In this document: positions 1 to 56,730 of the stretch, in pieces | Position numbering within the stretch: the stretch's first letter is position 1 | How the letters are laid out: every line of letters begins with the position of its first letter | From: a virus | Reading direction: 5' to 3' (one strand) | UHGV virus genome: UHGV-1374897 | DNA: 64,000 nucleotides | The notes under the pieces: generated by a model | Databases searched by the model: none | Told to the model about the DNA's origin: nothing | What the model saw: the letters and a program-made list of their open reading frames with translations, nothing else | Translations under genes and position numbers: made by a program

Positions 1-37
1 TAATTTGATTCTTCATTGTTTTATTTTCCTTTCTTCT

Positions 38-146
38 TTTAGTTTTCGTTTTGTTGTCCGGGGGTTGTCCCCCGTTGATGATTTCAATTTATCAGATTTT
101 CTTACCTTGTCAAATGTTTTTTGTTTTTGTATGACACAATCGTAAG
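38..146. repeat. About 110-bp repeat unit, copy A: T-rich tract, GC hairpin CCGGGGGTTGTCCCCCG, then a sigma70-like promoter TTGTCA(107-112)-N17-TATGAC(130-135)
   Basis: About 85% identical to copy B at 527-650. Both copies sit immediately upstream in + coordinates of a minus-strand gene start. Confidence 0.6.
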
Positions 147-509
147 TTATTCATCCGCAATGTTGAAGGCCTTGCGGGCGGCGTATCCCATGCGGTCTGT
201 CTCCATGATTGTCACTAGTTCCCCGGTGGGATAGATAACGGTGTTATGTGCAACCGGACGGCCCGCCTCGTGCCTCAAAAAGCGGTGGATATCCGCAATG
301 TCATAGTTAACCCCGTCCCACATGTGCACCATGTCCAAATCCTCAAGGGCGGGGGCAACGTCCCAGGGGAAAATGTCAAACACGGCCGCAACAGGGCGGG
401 CATGTGCGATTGTTTCTGCGTACAGGACGAGGGACAAAATGCCCGCGCCGTTTTCGTGCACCGCCCATGTGAGAGTTTCACCGTCTTGTAATTTGATTTG
501 AGTGTTCAT
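147..509 (-). CDS. Hypothetical protein, 120 aa
   Basis: Clean ORF with balanced composition. An AAGGAAA Shine-Dalgarno-like sequence lies upstream of the ATG on the minus strand. Confidence 0.55.
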   Translation of the reverse strand: MNTQIKLQDGETLTWAVHENGAGILSLVLYAETIAHARPVAAVFDIFPWDVAPALEDLDMVHMWDGVNYDIADIHRFLRHEAGRPVAHNTVIYPTGELVTIMETDRMGYAARKAFNIADE

Positions 510-526
510 GATTTAGTTTCCTTTCT

Positions 527-650
527 TGTTAGTGTTTCTATTGTTTCCGGGGTTGCCCCCGTTGATGATTTAACTTTAACCTATTTTATCTTGTTGTCAA
601 ATGTTTTTTGTTTTTGTATGACACAATTATAACACGCAGATAATGAGCGA
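527..650. repeat. About 110-bp repeat unit, copy B: GC hairpin CCGGGGTTGCCCCCG plus promoter TTGTCA(595-600)-N16-TATGAC(617-622) facing gene 772
   Basis: Direct repeat of 38-146. Confidence 0.6.
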
Positions 651-771
651 GTTACAACGCGCCGGAAAGAAAACCACTTGACGCCCCCCGCCAGTATGTT
701 AAATTGCAATCATCCACCGGGGAACAACCCGGAAATGAGAACACTAATTAAATAGATAGGAGATTAAAATC

Positions 772-1155
772 ATGAACAATCAAACTATAAGCAATGACGC
801 CCCCGCACCAAGAGACCGGGAAAATAAGATGAAGCTCGTGAGAGCCGCCGCCGCTAATTTAAGAGACACAATCACCTACGCCCGCCTCGCTATTGTGCCG
901 GATAAGCGGCTCGGAGACGTAGACTATCTTGAGGCGGTGGAAGCTCTCTATTGCGGCCCCCTTGGCACGGATGACGCAGACCCTACAGAGATTTTGCTCT
1001 CTGTCACTTACGGTGCCGGATTGCCCGCCGATAAAGCGGATGATGTTGAGTACGAGCTACGCTTCATTGTTGATTCTCTACCATTCACCCCGGATGACTT
1101 TTTCCGGGGAACAGGAGACGGCACAAAGGAATACGGTGCGGTCTTTACTCTCTAA
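772..1155 (+). CDS. Hypothetical protein, 127 aa
   Basis: ORF preceded by a TAGGAGA ribosome-binding site. It lies downstream of the promoter in repeat copy B. Confidence 0.55.
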   Translation: MNNQTISNDAPAPRDRENKMKLVRAAAANLRDTITYARLAIVPDKRLGDVDYLEAVEALYCGPLGTDDADPTEILLSVTYGAGLPADKADDVEYELRFIVDSLPFTPDDFFRGTGDGTKEYGAVFTL

Positions 1156-2877
1156 AAACCAACGGGTTACGATTGTGTCATACAACTTCCCCGGTATCCA
1201 TTGCACCCCCGGATTCCCCGGCACACTATATATAGAGAGAGAGAGAGACGGCACCCCCGGTTCCTTTGGATTCTTTTGGATTTAAATTGTAAATGTAAAT
1301 GTAAATGTTCCATGTGGAACAATCCGGCAATCGGGCAATCGGGCAATCCGGCAATCGGGATTCCGGATTCCGGGGTTGTGGTGGGATAGCGGGTTCAACG
1401 GGTTCCGTTGTTGCTATCGGGTTCCGGGGGTGCAACAATATGACGTACAAGATATAGGGGTTTTACATTTTTGTAAAACTATTAGTCCAATACTTGACTA
1501 TTAATGAGGGAAGGATACCTATACCCCTATGGGTATGGCTTGTATGTTGTTGATACTTAACCAGTACCAGACCGGACAATTTAAGGGCAAGACCGTGCCC
1601 CTTTTCTGCCTTCTCCAGCGCCTTCAATTTCAATCCCTATCGGAATAGTAGGAAAACCAAAACCCCGATTTTGCATTATATGTATTATGCGAAGTATGGA
1701 AGCGGATTCCTTTGAGCATCAATGAGTTACGCATATCAGGGTGCCAGTGGGAAACAGACTTTGCATCCCCGGATTCCATGGAGACCTACAGACCACTTCA
1801 TACCATAAGTTTCTTATCATCAGACGGTTGCAACAGATTCCGGGGATTCAATGGGTTGCATGCCGTACCGTTCCCGTGACGAGGGCGGGAGCAGTCCATG
1901 GCAGGCGGCATACCGTTTCCGTTGCAATACGGGGACCTATCATACCGATTCCGCTACAGGTGGGGGGATAGGCAGGCCGCTGAAACATACTGATTCCGGT
2001 GCAATCAGGGCAAAAAGGTTCCGTGATGCACCGATTCCGTGGGTATAGGGGGAAACTGGATGCCAAGGAAATCCAAACACCACCACGGTTTCCCAGGCTC
2101 CGGGGTTGCACGCGGCCCATAGTAAATAGTTGGGTCAAATTTTTTCCGTGGGGTACGGGGGAGGGGGTACCCTTCTGGGCATGTCAAGCAAAATCGACAC
2201 GCGGCCGTTCCACGGGCGGGATATACTTCTGGTCTGTTTCAGCCTCATCTGGTCTGCACCTTATCTCCGACTTGTCAAGCAAAATCGACACGCGGCCGTT
2301 CCACGGGGGGACGTATCGACCTAGAAGGCGGGCATACTCTTCGGGCAAATTTACTAGAGTGTGGCGGGGTATAGGTAGCGAGATGGTACATTAGTCATGA
2401 AACAGGAGATAGGGCACTACCATCGACCAAATTTGCGCACGGCGGGCATAATGCGAGGGAGCGGCTCTCACGGATTTGGCGGTAAAGAAAAAGCCCGCAG
2501 GTAGCTTGACGAGACTACCCACGGGCGTAACTATGGAAAATGCCTGTAGAAAGGAGAGTGTTTGGTCCGCTCCTGTGGCGAGCAAGTTCCTTGCTTGGGA
2601 TAGCCAGAAGCATTGAGCTTAGCTGGTTCGGTTGCCGTTCGGAGCGAACAGGTGCAACATATCACATCAGGGGAGAAAGTCAAGAGGAAATCAGCGTGAT
2701 GGACGCGTTTACGAATTTAATCCAGTGTGGCGAGGTAGAAGGAGGGGATGGGGTCCGGGTGGATAGTTGTAGCGGAGGGATGGTTGCGGCGCGTTCTAGG
2801 GTAGGACCCTCGATTAAATTCAGGGGATTTGGGGATTGTCTGTCATGTGCAACCCGTTTGGCCAATATACAAAGTTC

Positions 2878-2905
2878 TTGACATTTGTTTAGGGTGTGCT
2901 ATCCT
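2878..2905 (+). promoter_or_regulatory. Sigma70-like promoter TTGACA-N16-TATCCT inside the non-coding region
   Basis: TTGACA at 2878-2883 and TATCCT at 2900-2905. No protein gene follows before a terminator. Confidence 0.35.
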
Positions 2906-2911
2906 ACGCCA

Positions 2912-3065
2912 GTTCGTAAGCATTGCAGAACGGCAAGAACCACGGCGTTTAATAGGTTCTGCCACCAAGACAATGCACCAATCCCAAGGCGACGGACTAC
3001 ATTTGTTTGTAGGTGTTGATGGAACCCCGGAGGCAGGTTTATCCTGTTTCCGGGGTTTTCTTTTA
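2912..3065 (+). ncRNA. Candidate small non-coding RNA of about 150 nt, bounded by a promoter and a terminator
   Basis: Promoter at 2878-2905. Rho-independent terminator hairpin CCCCGGAGGCAGG...CCTGTTTCCGGGG followed by TTTTCTTTT at 3023-3065. No plausible ORF with a start site lies inside. Confidence 0.3.
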
Positions 3066-3722
3066 CCCAATAGCCTCAAAATCAAGGTAAGCGATTGAGA
3101 ATTAAAATCATAGTAGGAAGACATTAAGGTTAAGGAGCTTGCTCTCCTATAACTGACCTTGAAGGCATTACCAATGTTTAACACAGGTTCGGCTCTTCAT
3201 AAGTCGTTGAGAATCAGTAAAACCCCCTTCGGCTAACAGAGTTTAACAGAGGCCTAACATTGGCTCTGTGATAGTTAAGTGCTTTAGATTGAACCGCTTC
3301 TGAAATCCTAACACTTAACATTGATACCATTGAATATTATATACGTATATAGGGAACCCTATACCCCTTTTCTTATAAAAAAATATTAAAAATAAATATG
3401 TATTATGTTATGTTATTTTAGAAAAAAGGACGCTACTACCGTTTCACTATCAATCACTTATGACCTAACAATAACTAATTGACACCTCTGTTAGCCCCGG
3501 AACCCACGGAACCCAGAATCCACGGAATAACAGAAGCAAGTTCCTCATAATCAATGGACTTCTCAAATCCTAACAGAGGTGTCAAAAACTTATCAATCAG
3601 CCGAAAACTCTGTTAGGGTCTGTGTTAAAACGAGCAACCTCAATAGGTTACAACTACCAAAGAATTGGAACAGAGGGCACCTTTGTCCCAATCCTAACAC
3701 AATAACACAATAACAGACCATC

Positions 3723-4598
3723 ATGACACAGTTTTTGAATTTTCACTTGACAGCCCGCGTCCTGTCTGCTACCGTGCCGTCGATGAATACATCAACACCA
3801 CAAAACACTAGTCGGACCGTCGAGGACCATGTGAACCAGTTTGTGCTGGAGTACATGCTCTATCTGCGGAGTTTCATGGATGAATATCCCATCGCAGGGG
3901 TATCTCCCCGCAACAGTTCATGTTGCGACGCCATCTACCTCGAAAATGATTCCCTCCCAATATATATACAGGGACCGGACAGTCGCCCGCTATCGTCTAC
4001 GCCATTGGTGGCTTTGCTTCAATATTTGGCAGAGCGGCCCTTCGTCCGGTTTACGCTTCCGACATTCTACCAGCTCCTGACCACAATATATGGTTCCCCG
4101 GTAACCGAGACCCCATTCAACCGATTGCTCTGCGCATCCACGGTAGCCCTCGATATCGCGGATTCCGTGGGTTCCGAGGGTGCCATGTTCACGCTCGCGC
4201 CACGGGCTATGGACTTTGTACGGAACCTTCCCAAGAGCAAAGATACGGAGACCATCAAACTGATAGAAGAGAACTTCCATATCCCATGCCCCGTAGCCCA
4301 AGGTCCTGCGTCCAATTCCCACTTCATCTATTGGGAGGTGATGCCACAACTGACCACCGACACCGCGAGGCGATACCTGAAAGTGCTTCACTTCGCACAA
4401 GAAGGGAGACGTAGTCCCGTAGGTATTTTCGCCCTCCATCGTAATGAGGTCTATTCCCTTTCCAGCCTCATGTCCACCTTGCGCGAGATGAACGAGAGGC
4501 AACTTATTCAGTGGCCCAAAGAAGGCGAGAAGGAAAGCGCGGAGGCCCGTATAGAAGAATTTGAACCCGTCTTCGCAACTATTGAACCCAAGAAGTAA
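3723..4598 (+). CDS. Hypothetical protein, 291 aa; first gene of the replication operon
   Basis: Long ORF directly downstream of the ori-like region. Confidence 0.55.
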   Translation: MTQFLNFHLTARVLSATVPSMNTSTPQNTSRTVEDHVNQFVLEYMLYLRSFMDEYPIAGVSPRNSSCCDAIYLENDSLPIYIQGPDSRPLSSTPLVALLQYLAERPFVRFTLPTFYQLLTTIYGSPVTETPFNRLLCASTVALDIADSVGSEGAMFTLAPRAMDFVRNLPKSKDTETIKLIEENFHIPCPVAQGPASNSHFIYWEVMPQLTTDTARRYLKVLHFAQEGRRSPVGIFALHRNEVYSLSSLMSTLREMNERQLIQWPKEGEKESAEARIEEFEPVFATIEPKK

Positions 4599-4603
4599 AC
4601 GCC

Positions 4604-7474
4604 GTGTCTATACCGGAAACAAAACTGACCGCCGTAGGCCTAACCAACGGACAACTCACCTATGATAAGGATAAATTCCCCAATGCCGGGGGATGCAACC
4701 ATCCGAATCAAGTGAACCTTGCGGACGTGGAGAGCTTTTTCTCCGCGCCCGCCGGGGCTAAAATTCAGCCCCAGCTACTGCGTTGGAGGTTCTTCTCAAC
4801 CATGTACGACATGAAGGAAGGGAGGGAGCCGCGAGTTTCTCTCCCCTCCCTCTTCACCCGTACCTATAAGAAGTGGGAAGACCAGGGGTGGCTACCTCTG
4901 GTGAAGCGGGCACTCCCTGCCTTCGTCCCCTCCGTCAAGTTCCTCGGTGCGCCCAAAGAGTTGGACGGCATGTACTTCTCCAATAAGAAGCAAGTCATGA
5001 CCGATTTCTATTCTTGGGAACATACCGGAATATTTGGGATAGATATTGACCGTGGCCATGATGGGAATACGGATGATGCGGATGCTCTCTTCTCCACTGC
5101 CCAATCCATTCTTCCCACTATTCCCGGATTCCTCTTCGCATATACCAGCCCCAGCGGCGGGATTAAGGCGTTGTTCCGTATCTCCGCATCCTATACTCAA
5201 AAGCTCAACAACCCCGGAGCATCCACGGATTCCACGGATAAAACGGCTACCGAGGTTGCGGAGGAACTGCTGGACAAGCGTCTCCTTCTCCATAGTGCCA
5301 TCTACCACTATATCGCGGAGACCGTGGAATCCCGGACGGGACTATTCACGGACCCGCGATGCGATGACCCTGCACGTCTCCAATACATCTATTGGGGCCA
5401 GTACATCGCGCCGTTAGGGGATGAGGCTCCCTACTTTACCTTACCCTCTGACACCGAGGAACTGATTGCCAAGTATGGTAAGAAGAAAGCACCGAGGACC
5501 CGCTCCTGCAACCGTGAACTGCGCGAAGGCGAAGTGTTGCCGCAGGTGTTCCGCGACTTCGCTAACTGGTTGGAAAATAGAGGACACGAGCCGGAGGCGA
5601 CCGCGGTACGTGAGATGCTTAGGACCAGACCGGATGGTAATAACCGTCTCTACAACTACTGCCCCTGTTGTAAGGAAGCATGTACCAATGCTCGCCAGAA
5701 TACGGACCTCATGCTGGAAATCAACTTGGACTTCCCTCTTCAATCGTTCTTCTTCTGTCTTCACGGCTCCTGTCAGGACCGGAAGAAGGTGAAGCTCCCG
5801 ATGCAGAAGTTGTGGAAGATATATACCACGGACCTCGAAGCCAGAGAGAACTACGAAAGCGAATGCGATGACAAGAACCAGTTGGAAGTCTATCCGTGGG
5901 CCAGTTCCCTTCCTCTGATGGAATGCGCACAACGTGGTCTTGACGTTAATAACCGAGGGACTAAAGGACTGCCTGAACGTAGTGAAATTGACTACAACGG
6001 ATTGGCATACCTCCATGTGAAGAAGGATGGAACTCCGCGGATTACGATTGACAACCTCCGCATCATGTTGCAAGGCCTTGGCTACCTTCCCGTGCGCAAC
6101 TTGTTGCGTGATTCCAATGAGTTGCTCGACCTCAATACAGGTAAGTTCTATAACACGGACAAGGACACGCTAGCCACACTCACCGCATGGTGGGAGAGGC
6201 TTACGGATGGAGCACACACTCCGCTCAAGTATTTCTCCGACGCGTTCTATGCGCTCTGCCCTCGTGCCTCCTATCACCCGCTTGCCACTCTCGTTTGTTG
6301 TAACGAATGGGACGGGCAGGACAGGTTGTCCGAGTACTTGAGCCTTCTTCCCATGAATCAGGAGCACCCGGTTCCCCAAGCCCCCGAAGGCATGGAGCCA
6401 TTTACTCCCGACACATGGAGAGATGCAGTTCTCACTACGTGGCTCGTCACCGTATGGCGACGGCTCATCCTCCATATCACCGGACGAGATTCCGAGATTC
6501 CGCAGAACTACATGCCCATCTTTGTCGGACCTCCCGCTACGGGTAAGGACAAGTGGGCAGACAACCTCTTCGGAAATATTAAGGGCTTAATGACAGACGT
6601 GCAGGACATGTCCTCCCAAGGTGTTGACCTCTCCATGCTTCTCTCCCAGTTGGTGGTGCTCAAGTGGTCCGAAGTGGATGACATCCTACAGAACCGCAAA
6701 ATGAGTTCCCGCATTAAGAAGCTTATCACTTCCAACGCTTCTACGGACCGAAGGAAGTATGCGGAGAACCTGTCAGACTTCCAGCACATCGCCAGCTTCA
6801 TTGGCTCTACCAACGATGACCAGCCGCTCATTGACCCCACAGGGAACCGTCGATTCATCCTCCTATATACGGGCTACCCGGAGACGCAGGAACGAGCCTT
6901 CGATGCTACGTGGGAACGAGTGGACCGTATGATGGCTATTGACAAGGTACAGCTTTGGGCGCAGATTAAATACATCTCGGACCATGCGGGTCCCGGTGAA
7001 TTTACATGGAGAAAGCTTACCGACGTGTCGGAAGACTTCAACAAGGAATACGGTGTTGACCTTGGAAGTGAAGAATACCTCGCCAATATGGTTCGTCCGG
7101 TCGATTACAAGTGTGACAAGACGAAGGATGGTTCTGACATTGCTAGGGCCTTCTATGAGCAAGTATCTACACCCAAGGCTCTTCTCCGGTACATTAAGGC
7201 GCAACAACAGGATAGGGCCTTCCTCGACATCAAGGAACCCACGGCATCCGAGACTAAATCGTTTACGAACGCCCTCGGAAGCGTTTACGCTAACTGCAAC
7301 GTGAATGTCAAGTTCACGGATTCAACGCAGATTGTGCGTAAGAACACCTCCTTCCGTCGCATGACCTACTTAATGGTTGAGGACTGGTTGAGGGTTTTGG
7401 ATGCGGAATCTAAGGAACGATGGTACGCAAGATTCCCTGAATGGAAGGAAAGAGACTTACATGTAGAACTGTAA
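4604..7474 (+). CDS. DNA primase/helicase: AEP-type primase-polymerase N-terminal part plus D5/SF3-like helicase C-terminal part
   Basis: GTG start. DxD primase motif FGIDIDRGHDG. Walker A FVGPPATGKDK and Walker B VVLKWSEVDD in the C-terminal half. Size 956 aa. Confidence 0.65.
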   Translation: MSIPETKLTAVGLTNGQLTYDKDKFPNAGGCNHPNQVNLADVESFFSAPAGAKIQPQLLRWRFFSTMYDMKEGREPRVSLPSLFTRTYKKWEDQGWLPLVKRALPAFVPSVKFLGAPKELDGMYFSNKKQVMTDFYSWEHTGIFGIDIDRGHDGNTDDADALFSTAQSILPTIPGFLFAYTSPSGGIKALFRISASYTQKLNNPGASTDSTDKTATEVAEELLDKRLLLHSAIYHYIAETVESRTGLFTDPRCDDPARLQYIYWGQYIAPLGDEAPYFTLPSDTEELIAKYGKKKAPRTRSCNRELREGEVLPQVFRDFANWLENRGHEPEATAVREMLRTRPDGNNRLYNYCPCCKEACTNARQNTDLMLEINLDFPLQSFFFCLHGSCQDRKKVKLPMQKLWKIYTTDLEARENYESECDDKNQLEVYPWASSLPLMECAQRGLDVNNRGTKGLPERSEIDYNGLAYLHVKKDGTPRITIDNLRIMLQGLGYLPVRNLLRDSNELLDLNTGKFYNTDKDTLATLTAWWERLTDGAHTPLKYFSDAFYALCPRASYHPLATLVCCNEWDGQDRLSEYLSLLPMNQEHPVPQAPEGMEPFTPDTWRDAVLTTWLVTVWRRLILHITGRDSEIPQNYMPIFVGPPATGKDKWADNLFGNIKGLMTDVQDMSSQGVDLSMLLSQLVVLKWSEVDDILQNRKMSSRIKKLITSNASTDRRKYAENLSDFQHIASFIGSTNDDQPLIDPTGNRRFILLYTGYPETQERAFDATWERVDRMMAIDKVQLWAQIKYISDHAGPGEFTWRKLTDVSEDFNKEYGVDLGSEEYLANMVRPVDYKCDKTKDGSDIARAFYEQVSTPKALLRYIKAQQQDRAFLDIKEPTASETKSFTNALGSVYANCNVNVKFTDSTQIVRKNTSFRRMTYLMVEDWLRVLDAESKERWYARFPEWKERDLHVEL

Positions 7475-7518
7475 GAGAAGGAGTTACAACTCCCTCAAAA
7501 ATTTCTTCCAAAAACTTC

Positions 7519-47073: not shown

Positions 47074-50000
47074 ATGGCCATTGACTTTAGTACCGCCAAT
47101 ATGTCCGACTTCACTCCGAAGTCGGGAAGCAGTATTGCACGTGAACAGCGAGCCGTAGAAAGGCACGCCGCGTGGCAAGAGACGCAAGCGCAGAAACAAG
47201 AAGACAGAAAACAGAAAGCACTGGACCGCGAGCAAAGGCTAGCGGAAAAGAGACAGACCCGTGCGGAGAAAGCCGCAGAAGCCACCGCAGAGTTTGACAC
47301 CTTTATCGTTAAGTCCGTGGATGCCTTTGCGGAGAAACAGAAAAAGGATGCGGAACACGCGAAGAATGTAGAATGGCAAGATAAATCCCGCGCCCATACG
47401 GAACAAGAATGGAAAACCGCCGAGGAAAATAAAGCCCTCGACATCTTGAACAAAGGAAACCGTGGGTACAGCTTTGAGGGAATCGACTACATGAAAGACT
47501 ATGTAGAGCGCGGAGAGGATGCACTGGTTGATTTGACGGCCGCCGCTCGTGGCGATAAGGATGCTATTAAAAAGATTACGAATAATACGGGCATCGTCGC
47601 AGTCCTTTCCTCCGAACTTCCTCCCCAACATTCTGCATTCTTATCCCGCTCTGGCTTCGGAAGTGGAGAGGACGGGAACCCCGTCGTAACGGAAAAGTTC
47701 CTCGCTATTGCCGCGGACAGAAACCGTAACGCAAAGGCGGTGGCCAAATCCATTGCCACCACAATGGAGAAGGCCCGGAAGGATTACCTCAACAAGAATC
47801 TAGATGTTGTGTCTGGTAAACCTACGGCACAAGCCATCGAGACCGCACCTATTGCTTACACCGCAGAAGAAATAGAAAGCGTCATCAATACGATTAGGCG
47901 CGAAGACATTGGCAACTATCGTGCCGCTAAGGCTCTTTACGACAAACACCGCTCTTCTTCGACGGAGGGCGTGCAGAAGAAAACCCCCAGCCAAACGAGC
48001 GTGGGGGAGCTTGGCGTTGGCGAATTCTCTGATTCAGCACCTTCATTTACTGGGAATGTTTTTGCTGAACTCGCCAACCTTTCCAAGTCTCCCAGCAAAA
48101 TGTTCCGACTTGTCCGCGACTACGGGGATTACCTGTCCCGGAGTACGGAAGATATTAAATCCCCGGAAGCCAAGGAATCCGATTCCCTTTCTCCCGCCGC
48201 TAAACGTGCAGGGGAAATGGCAGTAGCGCAGGTTAAAGCCGTGGACAACATTGTCTCGCGGATGGAAGAGAGCTACACCGGATTGGATGCCGTGGGACTA
48301 AGGGATGCTCTCCTTAACCCCGAAGCAGTAGCTTCTGCGGCATTGGCCCTTGCCCCCGGCGTGGACATGGATGCAGTGCGCGAACGAGCAAATACCTTAG
48401 CCACCGAGCGTCATGCCGTGGTAACCTCCGACTACCAGAAAGCAATGGCTGATGCCATGATGGAAGAATTGGCTACAAGGTTTCCGGGGGTTCCGAAGAA
48501 TATATTACTACAGGCCGGGACGACGAAACTGATTCAGGACTATACCACCAAAGCTACACCGAGAGGCACCCTCATGGATGCAGTCAAAGGCGCACTGGCT
48601 AACTACCGAAGCGCGGCAGGACAAGTTGCGGACGTACTTACCTTCCAACCGGGGAATAGTGTGGGCAAGACCACTGACCCAATGAGTACGATGGAATGGA
48701 GGAAGGGAACGAGGCACGGCTCTTGGGAGTATGGTGTAGTGGGAGGCCCTGCCTTTGAAGTAGGTCCCGAACAGTTGAAGGAATACATGGCCCAGTACCA
48801 TATTGAAAGTACTCGCGATGCCCTTAACTCCCTCTCCCATGCCGCACGTATGGGTGACTTGGGCGTAGGTCGTGGCAGTCTCTTTGCGTACAACCCGCAC
48901 ACCAAGGAAGTTGATACGAACGCCACACTCGAACTGAACCCCAATGCTCTCTACAATGATAAGCTGATGGACCAGAGCATAGAGGCTCTCCGTGCTAGTG
49001 GCGCGGACGAAGGTCTCATCAATCGCACCATTGAGAAGTTCCAGAACCTCCGCAAGAAATCCGCACAGGAACTTGTGAAGGACAACATTGCATTGGACGA
49101 GACGCTGGGGACGCTTCGCGATACGTGGCTTGGCTCCGGCTTGCAGTTCAACCCTATCTTGACTGAATCCATGAAGCATCTGGACAAGCACCTTTCCTTC
49201 AAGAATTTTTACAACGAACAGAAGGAAGTGGGCAAGAGTGACGAGGACATCCTCTCCGCATGGCAGGAGAAAGGGCAAGACACCATCAACTCTGTTCTCC
49301 GTGGGTTGCAGATAGGTACACACAAGGCAATCGACCTTGGGACAGGTGCCGCCTATGGTGCTCTTCTCTTTGCACAGAATGCAGTTGGCAGTCGTGCGGC
49401 GATGGAACATACCCGCACCCTCTGGGACCAGCTGAACAAAAAACAGGAAGCGGAAGCTGAACTTGTTCGAGGCAATATCCTTGCGGATTATACTGCGGAA
49501 ATCGCTAACCTCGGCTACCAAATGGTAGCAACCGCGGGGGCTGGTAAAGTTGGCGGCCTCGCTGGGCGTGCACTGGAACGTACCGCGCTATCGCGGTTCG
49601 CGAAGGCAACGGCTAACGTTGTAGCGAAGCGGGCAGAAGCTCTTGTCCCTGCCGCCCGTCCGGGATTGGCGGGACGTTTGAGTGGAACTATTCAGCGCAA
49701 CCTCGACAACCTTGCGGCGTTGAACCTCGAACGGGCAGGAGCTGGAGCCGGGGTAAATCTTAGCATCATCTCGCAGGTTGCACCGAATGCTTACTCCGAC
49801 ATCTTCTATACCATTTATGATAGGGAGATGGAAGGGAAGGAACCGACTGCCGAGAACACGAACAGGGCACAGAGCATTGCCAACATGCGTGCCCTCTTTG
49901 GTGCGGCTCTCGTATCTACTGGTAGTACTCTCATCAACAACCGCGCAGGTATGGATTCCTTCATGCGTAAGATTGTTGGGGCTAAAAACCTTCGCGGTCA

Positions 50001-53000
50001 ATCTCCATTCCAAACTCTTGAACGGAAGATGGCCGGATGGAGAAGCAAGCCATTTAAGGAGATGAACACGAAGAAAAAGACGTTTGCCGTTGCTTCCTAT
50101 CTGTACAGCACGAGCAAGGCCGTAGTGGAAGGAGCCACCGAAGAACTGGCAGACGAATTCCAAGAATGGGCATTTACCGAACTGGTGAAGAACGGAGAAA
50201 TCTCTGAATCTTCTATTGCCACTACCGACCAAGTGATTAGCGGTGCCATAAAGATTGCTTTCCTCGGAGGTATCGGCGGCTACGTTGGTAGCCACTTAGC
50301 TGGTGAAGGGAACATACGTTTCCAAACCGAAGCCGCTCCAACTCTCGATGTAAAGGATGCTACTTCCATGCTACCGGATATTACGAAAGATGCGAGCAAC
50401 ATCATCGAGGAAACGGGCAAAGCCATTACCAAAAACAATGTGCCGGAAAGCTTGGTAGAAACCGGAAAGAAGGTTATCGAGATTGCCGGGGAGAAGGGGG
50501 ATGCCGCGGAAGTTGCCCGCGAATGGGTGGACAAATCCATTGCCCATGAAAGTCTAGTTGTCTCCGACGAAACCCGCAAGGCATGGGTGGATGGCGCAGT
50601 CCGTATGGGTATCAGCAACTTCACCCAGTTCCGCAACCTAGTTGAACGGGCCTCCGAAATACATACCTATGAGGGCAGTGCCGCGGCAAGCTCCTTCATG
50701 GCAGAAGCCATTAACGACTTGCCCAATACCCTGTCATTCCCAAATAAGGAAAACCTCGACACCATGCGAACCATGTTGTCCGAAGCCCTTGATGCTATGG
50801 GAGACCGGGTTCAGGTTATCGAAGTAGACGACGACCTGTCCATCATTACTACAGGGGACGAGGACCTTGATGCCGCCATTAACGTTATTAACGGATTGAC
50901 GGAAGCCGCGGCTACCACGGAATCCCCGGCTACCACGGAATCCCCGGCTACCACGGAACCCAAGGAATCCCCGGTAGCTATTGCCCGGAAGGAGAGGGAC
51001 AATGCTATTGCCCCCATCACTGCTATGGTAGAGACGGGAGTAGTTACCCCCAGTTCCGTGGAAACCGTGGATAACATGGATGCGGCAATCGCCTCGTTCG
51101 ATAGTAATACTGGTGCGTGGCTCTCCTATGGTACGCCATTGGAGCGCGGCGCGAAGCTCGTCTCCTTGAACGAGATGACCGGGATTAACGCCCCCATGAT
51201 TACCAGCAACACGGGAGAAACCATTGTCATCGCTCCGCACGCAAGCATGTACAACACAGGTGAGGGAGGTACCCCCAGCACCAAGTGGGGAGACAAGGTC
51301 TCCGCTCTCAATCTCCCGACGGATGGGACTGGCGCAAATGCCTATGGCATCCTTTCGGACCTTCAAGCTAATGCCTCCCCCGCACAGGCCGCGGCCATTG
51401 ATGGAGTGCTCCGCGCACTGCATGCCGCTGGTTTGGATGTTGCTATCCGAGCCACCAATGCCCCGGCGAACATCTCTTCCCCCGCCAGTATCACCTACAT
51501 GAACGGCACGGACGGGAAGCTTGTCGGCGGTGTCATTGACCTGTACGTGGACCGGGACAATGCGATTGAAAGCGTAACGGGAACGGTACTACACGAAGTC
51601 ATCCACCTCATTGACCGTCATCTTCGTGCCACCAACGCGGACTATTCCCAGCGGATGGATAAGATTAGAAGCGCGATTGCAGAGAACTACAACAATATTG
51701 TTGATAGTCTCTCCGCTATGTATGATGCTAGCGTGGACATCAATGAGATGAACGCCATCGCCGCGCTCGCTTCTGACCTCAACTATGGTCTCCGCGGCCC
51801 GGACGAATTTGCCAGTGTCGCGTTCTCCAATCCTGTCATGAACTTCATGATAGCGGAAGCTAGCGGAGACAATATAACCATCACGGATTTGGCTCGCTAT
51901 GCCGAAGCGGCTGGAGGCAGGAGGCCCATTCATGTGCGCCTCATCGAATGGCTTAAGGATTTGATTAGGGACGTGCAACAAACTGCGGACGCTATGGACG
52001 GAACCACCGCCGCAGAACACGTGGCTGAATGGGATTCCTATGTGGCCCGCATCGCGGACATGACCCCCGGCAAGTGGTTCGACATGCCTCGCACTCCGTC
52101 ATGGAAGGTAGACGATACGGATTATACTATGGGCAACGGGGTAGATTATTTTAACCCGATGGCCTATGAGACTGACATGACCCGAAGACTGTCCTTCGGT
52201 CTGGCCGCAGAAATCATTGGCACGAATGCCGGGAACTGGGTAACCAGTATTAAGAACGGATGGCTGGGTGCAACCAAGAACTGGGACAAGGCTGGCATCA
52301 ATGTTAAGTCCGAGGAACAGAAGCTGGTTGTGCTGGAACAAATGGCCAACGTGAATGCGGCATACGAACGTAGTATTAAACGCATTGACAAAATTGGCGA
52401 TATGCTTCAACGCCGTGCGGATAAGCTGGGCTGGGATGCCGCTACGCGAAAGAAATGGAGCAAGTCCATTCTTGACATGTCGGGGAATATGGACAACGAT
52501 ATTGACCCTGAAACTGTTGCACGCATTAACGCAGAGGCTCAAGCAGAAGTTCGTCAGCATGAACAGACCCGCGACTTCCGTATCGCGTTGGCTAAGAAGA
52601 CCGTCACCGATGCCGTCAATAGGCACGCGGAAGCGGTGCGTCTGGCTAACTCCCTTGCGCTTAATAGTGAAGGGAGATTGGAAATCAACGACATGATGCG
52701 CCGGATTAAAGACATGAGCGTCAAGGGATATGGTGCCATGCTGGACAAGCAGGTAGCTCTCCCCATGCTTTCCCAGCAGATTCACAAATCGCTCTCCGAC
52801 CTTGGCTCTCGTATCTCCGCGACGGGGAATGCCAATCTGGAAACCACCTACTTTGGCCTTGCCCGCGACACACAAAACTATCTCGCGGATATGATTAACG
52901 AGGTGGATAGTCCCTTCTCTATGGATGAACTTCTGGACAGGTGGTCCAACCTTCGCAATGACTTCCTCTATGCGGAGAGTACAAACCATCCCACCATCGT

Positions 53001-56000
53001 CCCTATGATTCAGGACATCGCTAAGACACGGGCCGAAGCTAAACAAATCATCCGGGAAGCCAAGGATGATTTCTACGCCGCAACAAAGCGAGCGGGCGTA
53101 ACTCGCGCTGGCGTAGCTACCCCTGCTGGTTCCGTGTGGCTGAAACGGGACAACGCTATCCTCAATGCACGCCGTCAAAAACAAGCGGAGTATATGGCTA
53201 AGCGGGATGCCGCTGAACAGTGGCTTCTGTCACAGGGGGTTGTAGGTCAACTGGTCCACAATGTCATCGCCAATTCCCGTAAAGAAATTGCCGCAACGCA
53301 AATCTCTATTGCCAAGCTCATTGGAGATAGCCGCATGGCTGACAACGCCGCGGAGATGAATTATCTTCATCGCACCTACATGGCCGTAGGACGCCATGCC
53401 GGAGACTTCACCCGGACGATGAAGGACATCATCGCAAACCCCAACGGAGAACTGGCGCAGAAATACGACGGTCTGACGAAACTGTTGCAGGAAGCCGCAA
53501 TCTCTCATGCCGAAGCGCACCAGAGAGAACTGTCCGAAAACGTAAGCCAAGTGCTGGACAACATGCAGGCATTGGCCGCGCTCCACGACGAGTTGAAACT
53601 TCCGCTGGTGTCAGCTCCCACGGGAGCCTCCGCGAATTATAAACTCCTGTTCGAGGGTGTAGCCAAGAACTACAGGAACAGGGAAATTCTGGACTTCATT
53701 CAGAACAACTTCGGCCAGGTTCAAATGCTTGCAGATTTGAGGGACGGCCACAACATCAGTGCCATATATAATAAGGCCATGAGCATGATAGCACAGGCAG
53801 ACTATCGCACGAAGTCAAAGATGACAGAGGCGAAGGAAACTCTGGACATGAATGCCAGAGATAGTTTCCTCGCTGATGTCTTCTCCAGCCTTCCGGGAAA
53901 AACGATTGCGGACAAAATTGGCAGTCTTCAATCCCCGGCATCCGTGGCTTCCGAAGTGAACAAGGCCATCCCCACTATCCCGACTTCGGCCATTGACCAG
54001 ATATGGAACACGCCCGATATGAATGCCGCAGAACGACTGGACAAGACGCTCAATCTTCTTCGCGGTCAGGCTGGCGTTCTCATGAGGATGAACGGCATGG
54101 GCAACGTCATCTCCGCTACCGACTTGAAAGCGTTGCAATATCCGGAACTCTCCCGCCTCGCAGTGAACGATGCCATGAAGGCCATTGACGAAGTTCTGTC
54201 CAAGAAGAGGACGAATGAAGATGCGCTGGCCCAGCGGAAACGCTTGCCCGAATGGCAGAGGAAAGCTATGTATGAACTTAGCGACCTCACCATTGGGGAT
54301 GCCATTGGGACGTTACAGAATACCCTATCCATGCAGTCGAAGATTGCCGTGAACCAGTTGCTTGCTGACGAGTATGCCTCCGTACTGAAAGCGCAGGGTG
54401 TGGTCGTACCCCCGAATTCCACAAACCGTACCTCGGACATGGTGGAAATCTCCTTGAAGAATACGAAGAATGCGTTGAACGGAATGTACGCCGACAAGGA
54501 TGTAGCCGATGCCATCTACCGCATCTACAGACCGAGCGACGACATCCTGAATAACAGGACGGACGACTATAAGGAGGTGCGCAAGTACTGGCAGAAGTCC
54601 GGCAAGGGGCAAGGATGGTGGAATAAGGCGGGTGGCTTGGCTAACCTTTCTGTCTTAATAGCGAGTCCTAATTCCACGTTACGTAACTTATATGGTACAG
54701 TAGCTCAAATGACCCATGCGGGTGCACTCCCATTCACGGGGAGTAAAGACATCGCAAACCTTGTCGGGGACTGGGTCCAGTTGCGTAAGCTATGGTGGCT
54801 ATCACAGGGCAAGGACCTTGCTTCACAGGCTTCCGCGGATAGACTGCTGGCCGCGGAAGACAGGTACAACGAGAAGATTCGCTACTGGCAAGAGCTTGGT
54901 CTGCTGGACGCAGGTCAAGGGGAGTTCCTGCGCAACGTCTGGAAGTCTGACGAGTTCAGTAAGATGGCAGGAGAATTTGAAGAAGTGAATGAGGATTCCT
55001 TCTTCAAACTGGCCGAAGCTCTGAACGAGAAACAGGAACGGACGAAGGGCGAGGTGGCTAAGGATGCCGCCAAGATGGCGGGCAAAGTCGTAGCATGGCC
55101 CATCAAAACGATGTCCTTCGCCTATGGCTTGCCGGACGCGGCGGCCAAGATTGTTCTCTTCACTAACCAGAGAGCGATTGCCGATACCCAATTAAAGGTA
55201 CAACTGGCGCGGGCGAAGGGCAAGGCCAACCCCAATGCGCGGGACCAGATACTCATTGACGCGAGCCAGACTACCCAGAGTTGGGATGCTTATGTGGACA
55301 GGTATACTGCCCACATGGTGAAGAGCTTGCTCCCCACGGGTTCGCGTACTCCTTCGTGGGTGAAAACCCTGAATATAGTTGCGGCTCCGTTCTTCATGTT
55401 CCAGTACCATACCTTCCAGTCTGTAGCCTACAACCTTGGCCACGCCATAGGTGAAGGGGTAGACGGTGTGTGGGCTATCAATAACGGCATGAAGAAGGAG
55501 GGGGCTTACCTCTTGGGACGCGCTATCCTTCGTACCGCGGGTTCCTTAGTAACTATTTCTGCAACCTCTGCGGTCTCTTCCTGGGTTGCCCGACAGATTA
55601 TCGCCAGTGTCTTGGGAGATGACGATGACCGTAAAATCATTGACGACGCGGAAGTCATGAGGAAGCTGGCAGATAGTGGGCTAATTCCTGACTATGATAA
55701 GTTCGGGGACTTGATTGGCATCATAGATATGAAGCGACATGAGTTCGAGTATTTGAACCTTGAATACATGAACCCGTTCAAGACCATCAGGGTGTTAGCC
55801 AAAACCCTGCCCAGCCTCTTCATGGATATGGATGTGGACAAGTGGGGGATGAACAAGGTTGCCGAACTGAAAAACCTGCTGGAAAATACGGTGCTTGAAG
55901 AATCCCTCCTTCTGAATGCCGCTTCTGAATTGTTTAATGAGGAAGACTTCAATTACAAGCATAGCCTCTCCGGTGATGAAAGCGTCAACGTTCTCCCGGC

Positions 56001-56730
56001 AGTCGGCAACGCAATCCTGTTGGCCGCAGGGCTGAACCCCTCGTTCGGCAGTGGACATACATGGCAAGTCCTTGAACGATTCGCGACGGTTGCCAATAAA
56101 AAGATTCCCTTCTACGGCTGGGCAGTCAAGTCAGGTAAACAATTGTTTAGCGATACACCTGACATGAGTGCCGCGGCATACGGGTTACAGTCCTTGGGTG
56201 CGGGCCTCCGTCGTCCGAAGGATTTGACCGAAGCCCTTGCCGCCGGGTTAAAGAATGCCAACGCGGCAGTCACTAAGTCGAAGCGAATGAGCGTCCTTCG
56301 TCCGGACTTCTACAAGAGAATGGAATCCGGAGTGGATGTGGAATCTATGGAAGCCGTGGAAACCGCGGATGCCGTGAAGAATTTCACCAAGCTAGTCAAT
56401 AGTGTCCGGTTTGTTACGGAAATTACAAACATGCTTGACCCCGCTCTGCGGAAGGAAGTTCTGGCTTCCGCGATTGAGAGTTCCGGTATGAGTGCCAAGA
56501 CCTACGGCGCGGCCATGAAAGGCATCATGCCCTACATCATTAGCCCGCAAGCAGGACGTGAGGCTATCGCGAAGCTCAACCGTGAATTGCAGAAGTCTAA
56601 TACCACGGACGAGGGCAAACGCCTAATCGAAGAGCAGAAGAAACTCATTATCAACCTCATGAGGAAGGGTAGCATTCAGATTGATGGGGCATTGAGTGTG
56701 GAGGAAATTCATAATCGGATGAAACAGTAA
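47074..56730 (+). CDS. Giant 3218-aa protein with zincin-like HExxH motif: candidate virion-associated, ejected or polyvalent protein
   Basis: Single uninterrupted ORF. Extremely charged K/E/R/Q coiled-coil N-terminus. HEVIHLIDRH at nt 51592-51621 (aa about 1507). TTESPA linker repeats at 50913-50966. Confidence 0.7.
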   Translation: MAIDFSTANMSDFTPKSGSSIAREQRAVERHAAWQETQAQKQEDRKQKALDREQRLAEKRQTRAEKAAEATAEFDTFIVKSVDAFAEKQKKDAEHAKNVEWQDKSRAHTEQEWKTAEENKALDILNKGNRGYSFEGIDYMKDYVERGEDALVDLTAAARGDKDAIKKITNNTGIVAVLSSELPPQHSAFLSRSGFGSGEDGNPVVTEKFLAIAADRNRNAKAVAKSIATTMEKARKDYLNKNLDVVSGKPTAQAIETAPIAYTAEEIESVINTIRREDIGNYRAAKALYDKHRSSSTEGVQKKTPSQTSVGELGVGEFSDSAPSFTGNVFAELANLSKSPSKMFRLVRDYGDYLSRSTEDIKSPEAKESDSLSPAAKRAGEMAVAQVKAVDNIVSRMEESYTGLDAVGLRDALLNPEAVASAALALAPGVDMDAVRERANTLATERHAVVTSDYQKAMADAMMEELATRFPGVPKNILLQAGTTKLIQDYTTKATPRGTLMDAVKGALANYRSAAGQVADVLTFQPGNSVGKTTDPMSTMEWRKGTRHGSWEYGVVGGPAFEVGPEQLKEYMAQYHIESTRDALNSLSHAARMGDLGVGRGSLFAYNPHTKEVDTNATLELNPNALYNDKLMDQSIEALRASGADEGLINRTIEKFQNLRKKSAQELVKDNIALDETLGTLRDTWLGSGLQFNPILTESMKHLDKHLSFKNFYNEQKEVGKSDEDILSAWQEKGQDTINSVLRGLQIGTHKAIDLGTGAAYGALLFAQNAVGSRAAMEHTRTLWDQLNKKQEAEAELVRGNILADYTAEIANLGYQMVATAGAGKVGGLAGRALERTALSRFAKATANVVAKRAEALVPAARPGLAGRLSGTIQRNLDNLAALNLERAGAGAGVNLSIISQVAPNAYSDIFYTIYDREMEGKEPTAENTNRAQSIANMRALFGAALVSTGSTLINNRAGMDSFMRKIVGAKNLRGQSPFQTLERKMAGWRSKPFKEMNTKKKTFAVASYLYSTSKAVVEGATEELADEFQEWAFTELVKNGEISESSIATTDQVISGAIKIAFLGGIGGYVGSHLAGEGNIRFQTEAAPTLDVKDATSMLPDITKDASNIIEETGKAITKNNVPESLVETGKKVIEIAGEKGDAAEVAREWVDKSIAHESLVVSDETRKAWVDGAVRMGISNFTQFRNLVERASEIHTYEGSAAASSFMAEAINDLPNTLSFPNKENLDTMRTMLSEALDAMGDRVQVIEVDDDLSIITTGDEDLDAAINVINGLTEAAATTESPATTESPATTEPKESPVAIARKERDNAIAPITAMVETGVVTPSSVETVDNMDAAIASFDSNTGAWLSYGTPLERGAKLVSLNEMTGINAPMITSNTGETIVIAPHASMYNTGEGGTPSTKWGDKVSALNLPTDGTGANAYGILSDLQANASPAQAAAIDGVLRALHAAGLDVAIRATNAPANISSPASITYMNGTDGKLVGGVIDLYVDRDNAIESVTGTVLHEVIHLIDRHLRATNADYSQRMDKIRSAIAENYNNIVDSLSAMYDASVDINEMNAIAALASDLNYGLRGPDEFASVAFSNPVMNFMIAEASGDNITITDLARYAEAAGGRRPIHVRLIEWLKDLIRDVQQTADAMDGTTAAEHVAEWDSYVARIADMTPGKWFDMPRTPSWKVDDTDYTMGNGVDYFNPMAYETDMTRRLSFGLAAEIIGTNAGNWVTSIKNGWLGATKNWDKAGINVKSEEQKLVVLEQMANVNAAYERSIKRIDKIGDMLQRRADKLGWDAATRKKWSKSILDMSGNMDNDIDPETVARINAEAQAEVRQHEQTRDFRIALAKKTVTDAVNRHAEAVRLANSLALNSEGRLEINDMMRRIKDMSVKGYGAMLDKQVALPMLSQQIHKSLSDLGSRISATGNANLETTYFGLARDTQNYLADMINEVDSPFSMDELLDRWSNLRNDFLYAESTNHPTIVPMIQDIAKTRAEAKQIIREAKDDFYAATKRAGVTRAGVATPAGSVWLKRDNAILNARRQKQAEYMAKRDAAEQWLLSQGVVGQLVHNVIANSRKEIAATQISIAKLIGDSRMADNAAEMNYLHRTYMAVGRHAGDFTRTMKDIIANPNGELAQKYDGLTKLLQEAAISHAEAHQRELSENVSQVLDNMQALAALHDELKLPLVSAPTGASANYKLLFEGVAKNYRNREILDFIQNNFGQVQMLADLRDGHNISAIYNKAMSMIAQADYRTKSKMTEAKETLDMNARDSFLADVFSSLPGKTIADKIGSLQSPASVASEVNKAIPTIPTSAIDQIWNTPDMNAAERLDKTLNLLRGQAGVLMRMNGMGNVISATDLKALQYPELSRLAVNDAMKAIDEVLSKKRTNEDALAQRKRLPEWQRKAMYELSDLTIGDAIGTLQNTLSMQSKIAVNQLLADEYASVLKAQGVVVPPNSTNRTSDMVEISLKNTKNALNGMYADKDVADAIYRIYRPSDDILNNRTDDYKEVRKYWQKSGKGQGWWNKAGGLANLSVLIASPNSTLRNLYGTVAQMTHAGALPFTGSKDIANLVGDWVQLRKLWWLSQGKDLASQASADRLLAAEDRYNEKIRYWQELGLLDAGQGEFLRNVWKSDEFSKMAGEFEEVNEDSFFKLAEALNEKQERTKGEVAKDAAKMAGKVVAWPIKTMSFAYGLPDAAAKIVLFTNQRAIADTQLKVQLARAKGKANPNARDQILIDASQTTQSWDAYVDRYTAHMVKSLLPTGSRTPSWVKTLNIVAAPFFMFQYHTFQSVAYNLGHAIGEGVDGVWAINNGMKKEGAYLLGRAILRTAGSLVTISATSAVSSWVARQIIASVLGDDDDRKIIDDAEVMRKLADSGLIPDYDKFGDLIGIIDMKRHEFEYLNLEYMNPFKTIRVLAKTLPSLFMDMDVDKWGMNKVAELKNLLENTVLEESLLLNAASELFNEEDFNYKHSLSGDESVNVLPAVGNAILLAAGLNPSFGSGHTWQVLERFATVANKKIPFYGWAVKSGKQLFSDTPDMSAAAYGLQSLGAGLRRPKDLTEALAAGLKNANAAVTKSKRMSVLRPDFYKRMESGVDVESMEAVETADAVKNFTKLVNSVRFVTEITNMLDPALRKEVLASAIESSGMSAKTYGAAMKGIMPYIISPQAGREAIAKLNRELQKSNTTDEGKRLIEEQKKLIINLMRKGSIQIDGALSVEEIHNRMKQ

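Follow-up and report, generated by a model that had tools for sequence, protein, structure and literature searches.

The window analysed here, a stretch of 64,000 nucleotides (nt) of the virus genome UHGV-1374897, contains at 1156-3722 a gene-free block of ~2.5 kb that lies upstream of the replication genes. This block is a composite non-coding control region with at least three functionally different parts. From its layout and from comparison with relatives, we read these parts as an iteron origin similar to those of Staphylococcus aureus pathogenicity islands (SaPIs), carried on an exchangeable cassette; two small-RNA genes (up to several in relatives); and a set of family-wide conserved DNA signals and microsatellites. 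The preliminary description had taken the whole block for a candidate origin, on the strength of iterons and an AT-rich element next to replication genes. This canonical layout is present at ~3200-3722 and does not extend over all 2.5 kb: the origin reading is right for about one fifth of the block only, and the middle carries two predicted small-RNA units. Because the layout of 3200-3722 matches that of SaPI origins, we lean towards this segment being the vegetative origin, where we infer protein binding and initiation to take place. Positions 1-5000 were read directly, and the features listed in the preliminary description were checked by pattern search, TRF and a repeat finder; they were found 0-2 nt from the positions given there, aside from two corrections that concern the GATTCCG[GT] count and the AT content.

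The origin-like module (3200-3722) is defined by its boxes, an AT-rich core, an inverted repeat and fold statistics. The hexamer CTAACA occurs 8 times in these 523 nt compared with 7 times in the other 63.5 kb, an enrichment of ~140-fold, while YTAACA reaches 11 copies in the module, and TAACAGAG is found 5 times there and nowhere else in the window. Five YTAACA/CTAACAGAGG boxes are located left of the AT core, at 3233, 3243, 3254, 3308 and 3315, all in forward orientation. Six lie to the right, forward at 3465, 3570 and 3694 and reverse at 3489, 3611 and 3623. An AT content of more than 80% had been reported for 3300-3450; this stretch as a whole has 74%, and the higher values are confined to its core, with 80% at 3331-3430 and 88% at 3366-3425. 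No other 100-nt window in the 64 kb is as AT-rich as the core at 3331-3430 (the runner-up has 72%), which is accompanied by the 13-mer TATCAATCACTTA at 3448-3460. The inverted pair GACACCTCTGTTAG (3481) and CTAACAGAGGTGTC (3570) was found to be part of a 24-nt inverted repeat with arms at 3471-3494 and 3570-3593; between the arms are reverse CCACGGAA units (3496-3527; copies at 3504 and 3520). The three AATCCTAACA boxes are located at 3304, 3566 and 3690. A sliding fold scan gave z = -6.8 for 3481-3600.

SaPI origins consist of 6-12 penta- or hexanucleotide iterons split by an AT-rich centre and set in opposite orientations, with an iteron specificity that matches the cognate superfamily 3 (SF3) self-loading helicase-initiator, sometimes fused to primase as in PriRep5 (PMC9371898). 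The module likewise contains at least six short penta-/hexamer iterons, distributed around an AT-rich centre with some in opposite orientation (5 on the left, all forward, and 6 of mixed orientation on the right). With 8-11 hexamer boxes around an 80-88% AT core, it resembles a SaPI replicon in lying beside a primase-helicase with a VapE-like domain (4604-7474, + strand; Pfam, E = 5e-19). This protein is a candidate cognate helicase: module and primase are swapped together, and the box type tracks the primase lineage. In such a scheme the hexamer iterons, CTAACA in the window, flank an AT-rich unwinding core, with opposite orientations on its right side. The VapE-family (SF3-type) primase-helicase, or a cassette partner, would bind the boxes, and the bound initiator would melt the AT core and then load itself, as SaPI Rep proteins do at SaPI origins and P4 alpha does at its ori. 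The module differs from a SaPI origin in being ~0.5 kb as opposed to ~0.3 kb long, and in the addition of the 24-nt inverted repeat and the CCACGGAA units. Furthermore, similarity of the primase-helicase to SaPI1 Rep1 (7PDS, deposited under a vapE-like name) is marginal, this being the best PDB match at E = 0.11. We found no classical plasmid- or lambda-type arrangement of 17-22-bp tandem iterons in helical phase in the block; the 24-nt direct repeats of its left part are irregularly spaced, 83-300 nt apart and 1 kb from the AT core.

Comparison with related contigs, designated by L numbers, shows that the module is located within an exchangeable replication cassette (2837-~7480, + strand) comprising a small-RNA unit, the AT/box module, an ORF of 291 amino acids (aa) and the primase-helicase gene. 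L102, L086 and L162 are 92-97% identical to the window left of ~2832-2836 and again right of 7481-7498, yet have no nucleotide homology to it between ~2836 and ~7481, and their primases share only 30-31% amino-acid identity with that of the window. Because similarity stops and resumes at these points, the exchanged unit can be defined as the primase-helicase together with the AT/box module, at least one RNA unit and, in some types, a small ORF. Within the clade of the window, 2340-2836 is shared at 92-97% identity, and the sequence beyond 2836 falls into discrete types. The 291-aa ORF (3723-4598, + strand) has no obvious Shine-Dalgarno sequence and belongs to no family that domain searches could detect; it is found only in CTAACA-type cassettes. 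Other cassettes have unrelated small ORFs of 280-330 aa or none, the L162 type being without a separate small ORF.

Nine cassette types or lineages were examined for AT/box modules, and all nine contain their own 6-mer box together with a core of 74-95% AT, with 6-15 box copies per cassette in 0.45-0.75 kb. The box is CTAACA in the window and L004, TAACAA/TTGTTA in L162 and L048, GAGACA in L081 and L102, AGGACC in L086, AAATAGT in L140 and GGTACA in L005. L162 and L048, which share TTGTTA, have primases that are 48% identical, the most similar pair between those lineages. L086 and L102 differ in their boxes, and their primases, 87% identical, diverge mainly in the last ~120 residues. Across these sequences, box type follows primase lineage.

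Several observations weigh against an origin at 3200-3722. The module lies upstream of the primase-helicase gene, whereas the SaPI origin lies downstream of rep. A cumulative GC-skew inflection had been proposed as a check, and a bacterial-type origin is expected at the cumulative-skew minimum; the skew gives no such minimum and instead has its global maximum at ~3 kb. This is not diagnostic, as the G-rich non-coding stretch at 2-3 kb itself produces the maximum (at +0.17, the skew of 2001-3000 exceeds that of all other 1-kb windows). No DNA-binding domain could be demonstrated in the C-terminus of the primase, which has no Pfam or NCBIfam match: a single-sequence AlphaFold model of the last 177 aa has a predicted local distance difference test score (pLDDT) of 38, unusable for a winged-helix search, and a homologue search returned one near-identical fragment, too few for an alignment. 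The conserved blocks A and B and the 24-nt elements of the left part, described below, may also belong to the origin machinery, by analogy with P4, in which ori and crr lie kilobases apart. A further point concerns the small ORF upstream of the primase, which we considered as the determinant of box specificity. L081 and L102 share GAGACA boxes, and their small ORFs are unrelated; hence box type does not follow the small ORF, and this candidate is not supported.

Finally, in the main alternative to an origin, the boxes would be operators through which a cassette-specific regulator controls the replication operon, as in an immunity-like module, with 3200-3722 as a promoter/operator region and the core as promoter or UP-element DNA. 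In every lineage the module is indeed placed directly upstream of the first gene of the operon, L005, L048 and L140 have good sigma-70 promoters between boxes and start codon, and cassettes often include a small ORF beside the boxes; lambdoid immunity regions are also swapped as cassettes. We nevertheless regard this explanation as rather unlikely. Typical operator sets are far exceeded by 8-15 boxes spread over 0.5 kb around a core of 80-95% AT, and no helix-turn-helix or repressor family was detected in the neighbouring proteins. The absence of a separate small ORF from L162-type cassettes and the boxes shared by L081 and L102 argue in the same direction.

Two further systems bear comparison with the SaPI-like origin. 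P4 alpha combines primase, helicase and origin binding to octamer repeats in one polypeptide, with repeat clusters kilobases apart. Primase and helicase are joined in one polypeptide in the window, too; however, the GGTTCCGKG clusters that flank the block are also found in genes and remain unchanged across primase lineages. In lambdoid phages, ori lies within O, initiator and iterons are swapped as a unit, and the oop RNA is encoded beside the origin. The exchange of a candidate initiator and its putative iterons as a unit, and a predicted terminated small RNA adjoining the probable origin, are features in common with the window. In contrast, the window origin would be intergenic rather than inside the initiator gene, there are no O/P-type proteins, and the small RNAs are unrelated to oop (no Rfam match).

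The non-coding nature of the block, proposed from its short ORF predictions, was borne out. The longest ORF is at most 131 aa, no Pfam match was obtained, and the ORFs are frameshifted or stopped in relatives, where amino-acid identity of the window ORFs falls below nucleotide identity. Hidden protein genes were therefore rejected. A search for tRNAs found none in the window, and Rfam at gathering threshold gave no match there; a permissive Rfam search of 1100-3800 returned weak, chance-level matches only, and permissive searches of L048 and L075 nothing credible. A sliding z-score scan of the block picked out only four segments: the 3471-3593 inverted repeat, 1301-1560 and two regions that we designate sRNA-a and sRNA-m.

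sRNA-a and sRNA-m are predicted to be independent small RNAs transcribed by the host, each having a promoter, a structured body and a Rho-independent terminator on one and the same strand. Candidate sRNA-a is encoded on the + strand, with a promoter at 2878-2905 (TTGACA-16-TATCCT with a preceding TG, 10 of 12 consensus positions in a promoter/terminator scan), a transcript at ~2912-3066 and a strong terminator, which the scan placed with its end near 3062, formed by a 16-bp stem (~3022-3058) and a U-run. The minimum free energy (MFE) of 2912-3066 is -58.9 kcal/mol (z = -5.12), which none of 200 shuffled sequences equalled. Across relatives, promoter and terminator are kept and the body varies in sequence and length, falling into several types with ~30 to ~115 nt before the terminator; L004 and L086 contain two tandem small-RNA units. 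The terminator family comprises 16 distinct sequences with a 13-16-bp stem and 90.6% of cells paired. Six pairs have changed on both sides, and none of 500 shuffled alignments showed such covariation; the G.U pairs are fixed and compatible with the + strand alone.

Candidate sRNA-m is encoded on the - strand, with a promoter at 2683-2656 (TTGACT-16-TATGTT, preceding TG), a transcript of ~165 nt at ~2649-2484 and a 13-bp terminator stem at 2526-2493, again followed by a U-run. Its MFE is -57.6 kcal/mol (z = -4.37, 0/200 shuffles as good), compared with z = -1.76 for the + strand. The structure persists in 22 variants, with two base pairs altered at both positions. Four G.U pairs are invariant and, like one change from GC to GU, are compatible with the minus strand alone; one of the hairpins occurs as two alleles (GCAAG/CTTGC and GCGGG/TCCGC). 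The sRNA-m gene is located in a clade-specific element, E (2340-2836), which also contains a stem-loop at 2713-2821 (inverted repeat I20) and ends sharply at 2836. Relatives that have element E at 92-97% identity are only 82-91% identical in its left flank (1426-2346). Fold scores of z = +1.0 (+ strand) and -1.1 (- strand) led us to reject one large structured RNA at 2340-2836; within it, a signal comes from the sRNA-m unit only. A segment of 82 nt, present at 2339|2340 in all aligned relatives and representing an 80% copy of 2755-2836, is missing from the window. Because the direct repeat TTCGGGC flanks the gap, a recent slippage deletion is suggested.

An antisense role for sRNA-a at the primase start was considered, as its loop has an 11-nt complementarity to 4596-4606. 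In L003, 4 of the 11 target positions differ although the loop is kept; L004 has the same genes as the window and different small RNAs, and an RNAduplex scan did not rank start sites top for sRNA-a. This antisense reading was rejected because the 11-nt loop match is not conserved. The two units resemble phage trans-acting small RNAs in being intergenic, ~70-220 nt long, and composed of a strong promoter, a structured body and a terminator. They differ in having no Rfam family and in their modular body, hypervariable among near-identical phages while promoter and terminator are kept.

Further RNA units were observed in relatives. A ~200-nt unit with a sigma-70 promoter and a terminator, bracketed by 24-mers on both sides, is present at 8943-9180 of L005, at 2610-2820 of L048 and in L075/L140; it is well conserved, with primases that are 28-34% identical. 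A second conserved unit, found at 9260-9480 of L005, at 3390-3530 of L048 and at equivalent places in L075/L140, contains CAATGTTACCC and GGGTAAC twice each, in an arrangement that permits nested pairing, with 11 predicted pairs changed on both sides among 4 sequences. This unit is absent from the window. In L048 and L140, a second RNA unit lies directly upstream of the AT/box module.

The arrangement of the block is conserved well beyond the clade of the window. Motif mapping revealed an identical order in L005, L048, L075, L140 and all 46 loci obtained by a 23-mer scan of metagenome contigs: forward GGTTCCGKG-type arrays are followed by block A, block B, one or more 24-mers, one or more RNA units, the AT/box module, reverse CCACGGAAC units and the primase. 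L005, with a primase 40% identical to that of the window, has a 2.7-kb gene-free block at the equivalent place, and the architecture as a whole is kept even though the primases are just 27-40% identical to the window's (amino acid).

No other DNA in these genomes is as conserved as blocks A and B and the 24-nt elements; A and B are 73-100% identical at the nucleotide level across lineages with such divergent primases. Block A (1666-1757, + strand; 75-100% identical between these lineages) has the core TATTATGCGAAGTATG at 1683-1698, the 13-mer CATCAATGAGTTA at 1717-1729 and the end motif GGTGCCAGTGGGAAACAG at 1740-1757. Block B (2026-2180, + strand) contains ACCACCACGGTTTCC...CATAGTAAA...CAAATTTTTT and a G-rich hairpin, the sequence of which co-varies between lineages, and then CCTTCTGGGCA; it is always positioned after block A and before the first 24-mer. 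RNA structure in either block was rejected, since there is no consensus fold (alifold -3 kcal/mol for block A) and the z-score scan is flat there. A 35-nt direct repeat had been noted at 2183-2217 and 2272-2306. The repeat is real and extends to 38 nt (2182-2219 and 2273-2310, 97% identical), and represents the window copies, at 2181-2310 on the + strand, of a family-wide 24-nt element, tTGTCAAGmrAAATCGACRyGCGGC. This element is found only in the block, always in + orientation and in 2-5 copies per genome. Copies are located directly after block B, directly after an RNA terminator and, in four lineages, ~35 nt upstream of an RNA promoter (counted from its -35 box). A 13-mer fitting WATCAANNNNTTR recurs across lineages in two places, one next to the AT core and the other either in block A or in the left AT-rich segment, with window copies at 1717-1729 (first base C, not W) and 3448-3460. 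We considered these 13-mers as sites for integration host factor (IHF); the only host hint is a Firmicute, and we know of no IHF in that group. Sigma-54, Bacteroidetes-type and hairpin-promoter readings of block A and the 24-mer, made by eye, were inconsistent across lineages and were rejected.

The conserved signals of the left part are most plausibly protein-binding or promoter-type DNA signals common to all lineages, and the 24-nt element may serve for binding, as a phage-type promoter or as a processing signal. One way to specify this would be to view block A through the 24-mers as an early-transcription region in which the 24-mers are phage promoters or RNA processing sites that give rise to non-coding early RNAs. 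The 24-mers are block-specific, point rightward throughout and each precede a conserved unit; in length and conservation they resemble promoters of single-subunit RNA polymerases, and the sequence just upstream of each copy varies more than that downstream. The genome moreover encodes a protein of 3218 aa without detectable family (47074-56730, + strand; no Pfam, PHROGs or PDB sequence match). However, no RNA polymerase was identified by Pfam or PHROGs among ~45 ORFs, the 3218-aa protein contains neither DxDGD nor T7-type RNA-polymerase motifs (only three DxDxD motifs), and ordinary sigma-70 promoters drive the RNA units. Some 24-mers, moreover, directly follow a terminator or precede a sigma-70 -35 box by ~35 nt, positions that suit a binding site as well, and we consider an early-transcription region improbable. 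Similarly little credence is given to the broader idea of a cis-regulatory system not described before, made up of blocks A, B and the 24-mers. These could, for instance, act as promoters or processing signals for transcription machinery specific to the phage, perhaps supplied by the 3218-aa protein, that makes modular, rapidly exchanged early non-coding RNAs.

Left of block A, the block begins with an array of short tandem repeats (1234-1432, + strand). An (AG)7 tract (7.5 units, 1234-1248) and two copies of TTCCTTTGGA are accompanied by TAAATG, noted earlier as three copies and found in 4.2 at 1283-1308. The 8-mer CAATCGGG is repeated five times at 1320-1359, as proposed, with the exact form ATC[CG]GGCA in four copies and not five; the pair described as ATTCCGG corresponds to 2.3 units of GGATTCC at 1358-1373, and GGGTTCCG-like copies complete the array. 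A hypervariable microsatellite is represented in the window by the 8-mer/7-mer arrays at 1320-1373; relatives carry 9-mer arrays in their place (GGTTCCGTG x5 in L048, GGGGGTTCC x6 in L140). The adjoining AT-rich segment (1436-1560) contains the palindrome with arms GTTTTACA (1460) and TGTAAAAC (1472), spanning 1460-1479, and a hairpin, CTATACCCCTATGGGTATGG, at 1519-1538. Its AT content is 68% at 1461-1560, and 1441-1560 folds with z = -3.8 on the + strand. ACCTATACCCCTATGGGTAT from this segment is kept in L140, and CCTATACCCCT recurs at 3358 (family D16). At least five GATTCCG[GT] iterons had been described at 1770-2040. Just three are present there (1836, 1992 and 2033); another two are located at 1359 and 1366, and nine are found in other parts of the window, genes included. 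The motif is ~14-fold enriched, yet not block-specific, and GATTCCG-type words are only mildly over-represented after allowing for subword content and are found in genes genome-wide too.

These counts bear on whether the GATTCCG words, 8-mers, 35-nt repeats and AT-rich DNA could all be elements of one extended origin spanning the 2.5 kb, which we judge improbable. Two promoter-terminator RNA genes fill the middle of the block, GATTCCG-type words are found in coding DNA throughout the genome, and the left arrays are hypervariable in both unit and copy number. The block is divided by the recombination boundary at 2836, and its left 1.6 kb therefore shows no co-evolution with the primase. An extended origin would, in turn, account for the GGTTCCGKG-type arrays that flank the block in opposite orientations in all lineages and for the AT-rich segment with a CCTATACCCCT motif at either end, and P4 with its ori and crr is a precedent for two separated iteron clusters. 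An origin confined to 3200-3722 remains our preferred reading.

Contig ends are also frequent near the left arrays, many lying no more than a few hundred nt away. Many contigs from independent assemblies, among them many near-full-length ones of 65-71 kb, end 0.05-1.4 kb left of block A, at scattered positions, and one (L183) ends at the block A core in a Nextera adapter; T7-like phages have short repeat arrays beside their terminal repeats. This might indicate physical genome ends or a packaging site (terminal repeat or pac) in the block or in its left part. The contig ends, however, spread over more than 1 kb with no single coordinate, the block is internal in the full-length L018, L048, L098, L140 and L005, and the terminase gene is located 12 kb away. 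Tandem 8-9-mers of 45-63 nt together with strain variation suffice to break short-read assemblies. We thus regard the contig ends as places where assemblies broke at repeats and not as physical ends of the genome, and hold a terminus at this place to be very improbable. The end of L183 (ENA OZLG01000263.1), where the adapter AGATGTGTATAAGAGACAG is fused exactly at the block A core, before GTATTATGCGAAG, is probably an untrimmed adapter.

The window is most of a ~70-kb phage genome. It belongs to an uncharacterised and uncultivated phage family that is found mainly in the human gut and is apparently widespread. More than 60 related contigs, mostly from human gut metagenomes, share the identical order of block parts; many of the 46 loci from the 23-mer scan are labelled human gut metagenome and many are on contigs of 65-71 kb, and IMG/VR holds many related contigs, nearly all from metagenome 3300045988. 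The contigs of relatives are circularly permuted, and several have the block in their interior. The block showed no DNA similarity to cultured phages. A tblastn search of 50,697 phage records returned nothing for the terminase large subunit, and the DNA polymerase shares ~26% identity with its nearest match. The family has no cultured relative, yet recurs in many human-gut metagenome assemblies as ~70-kb contigs. Besides the genes described above, the genome encodes a terminase large subunit, a family-A DNA polymerase, a helicase and a PD-(D/E)XK nuclease, with genes for ThyX and an NAD-dependent ligase on the minus strand.

The sole host hint comes from a contig (L166, CABUDN010000135.1) of the Oscillibacter sp. 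metagenome-assembled genome MGYG-HGUT-03910, and points towards Oscillospiraceae. Its last 54 nt match the phage, consisting of 30 nt and a 24-mer, and are 91% identical to L182; the bacterial contig carries a DeoR-like gene without its N-terminal part. Such a junction might arise from a link in the assembly graph, from a chimera or from integration. We rejected an integration site (attP) and treat the end as a graph link or chimera, because no integrase was found and 54 nt is about the length of one assembler k-mer. The window has 190 GANTC sites per strand, made up of 98 GATTC, 90 GAATC and together only 2 GAGTC/GACTC. GAGTC is the site of PleI/MlyI-type IIS restriction enzymes, and its near-absence suggests restriction-site avoidance. 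Outside the block, a 121-nt promoter-like repeat containing TTGTCAAATG...TTGTATGACACAAT is present at 25-145 and 512-632 (74% identical), upstream of divergent genes. A perfect 19-nt inverted copy, TTACGATTGTGTCATACAA, lies at 1167-1185, directly before the block, and the motif GATTGTGTCATACAA of the repeat is also kept in L140.

With a place for the likely origin, a cassette that travels with the primase-helicase and boxes that differ between cassettes, the block may offer a handle on replicons and on the incompatibility of co-infecting relatives. The predicted small-RNA units, with kept ends and a swapped body, would represent a compact natural example of modular regulatory RNA evolution, and the RNAs themselves are candidates for host-directed or anti-defence RNAs. 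Blocks A, B and the 24-mers are good markers of the family.

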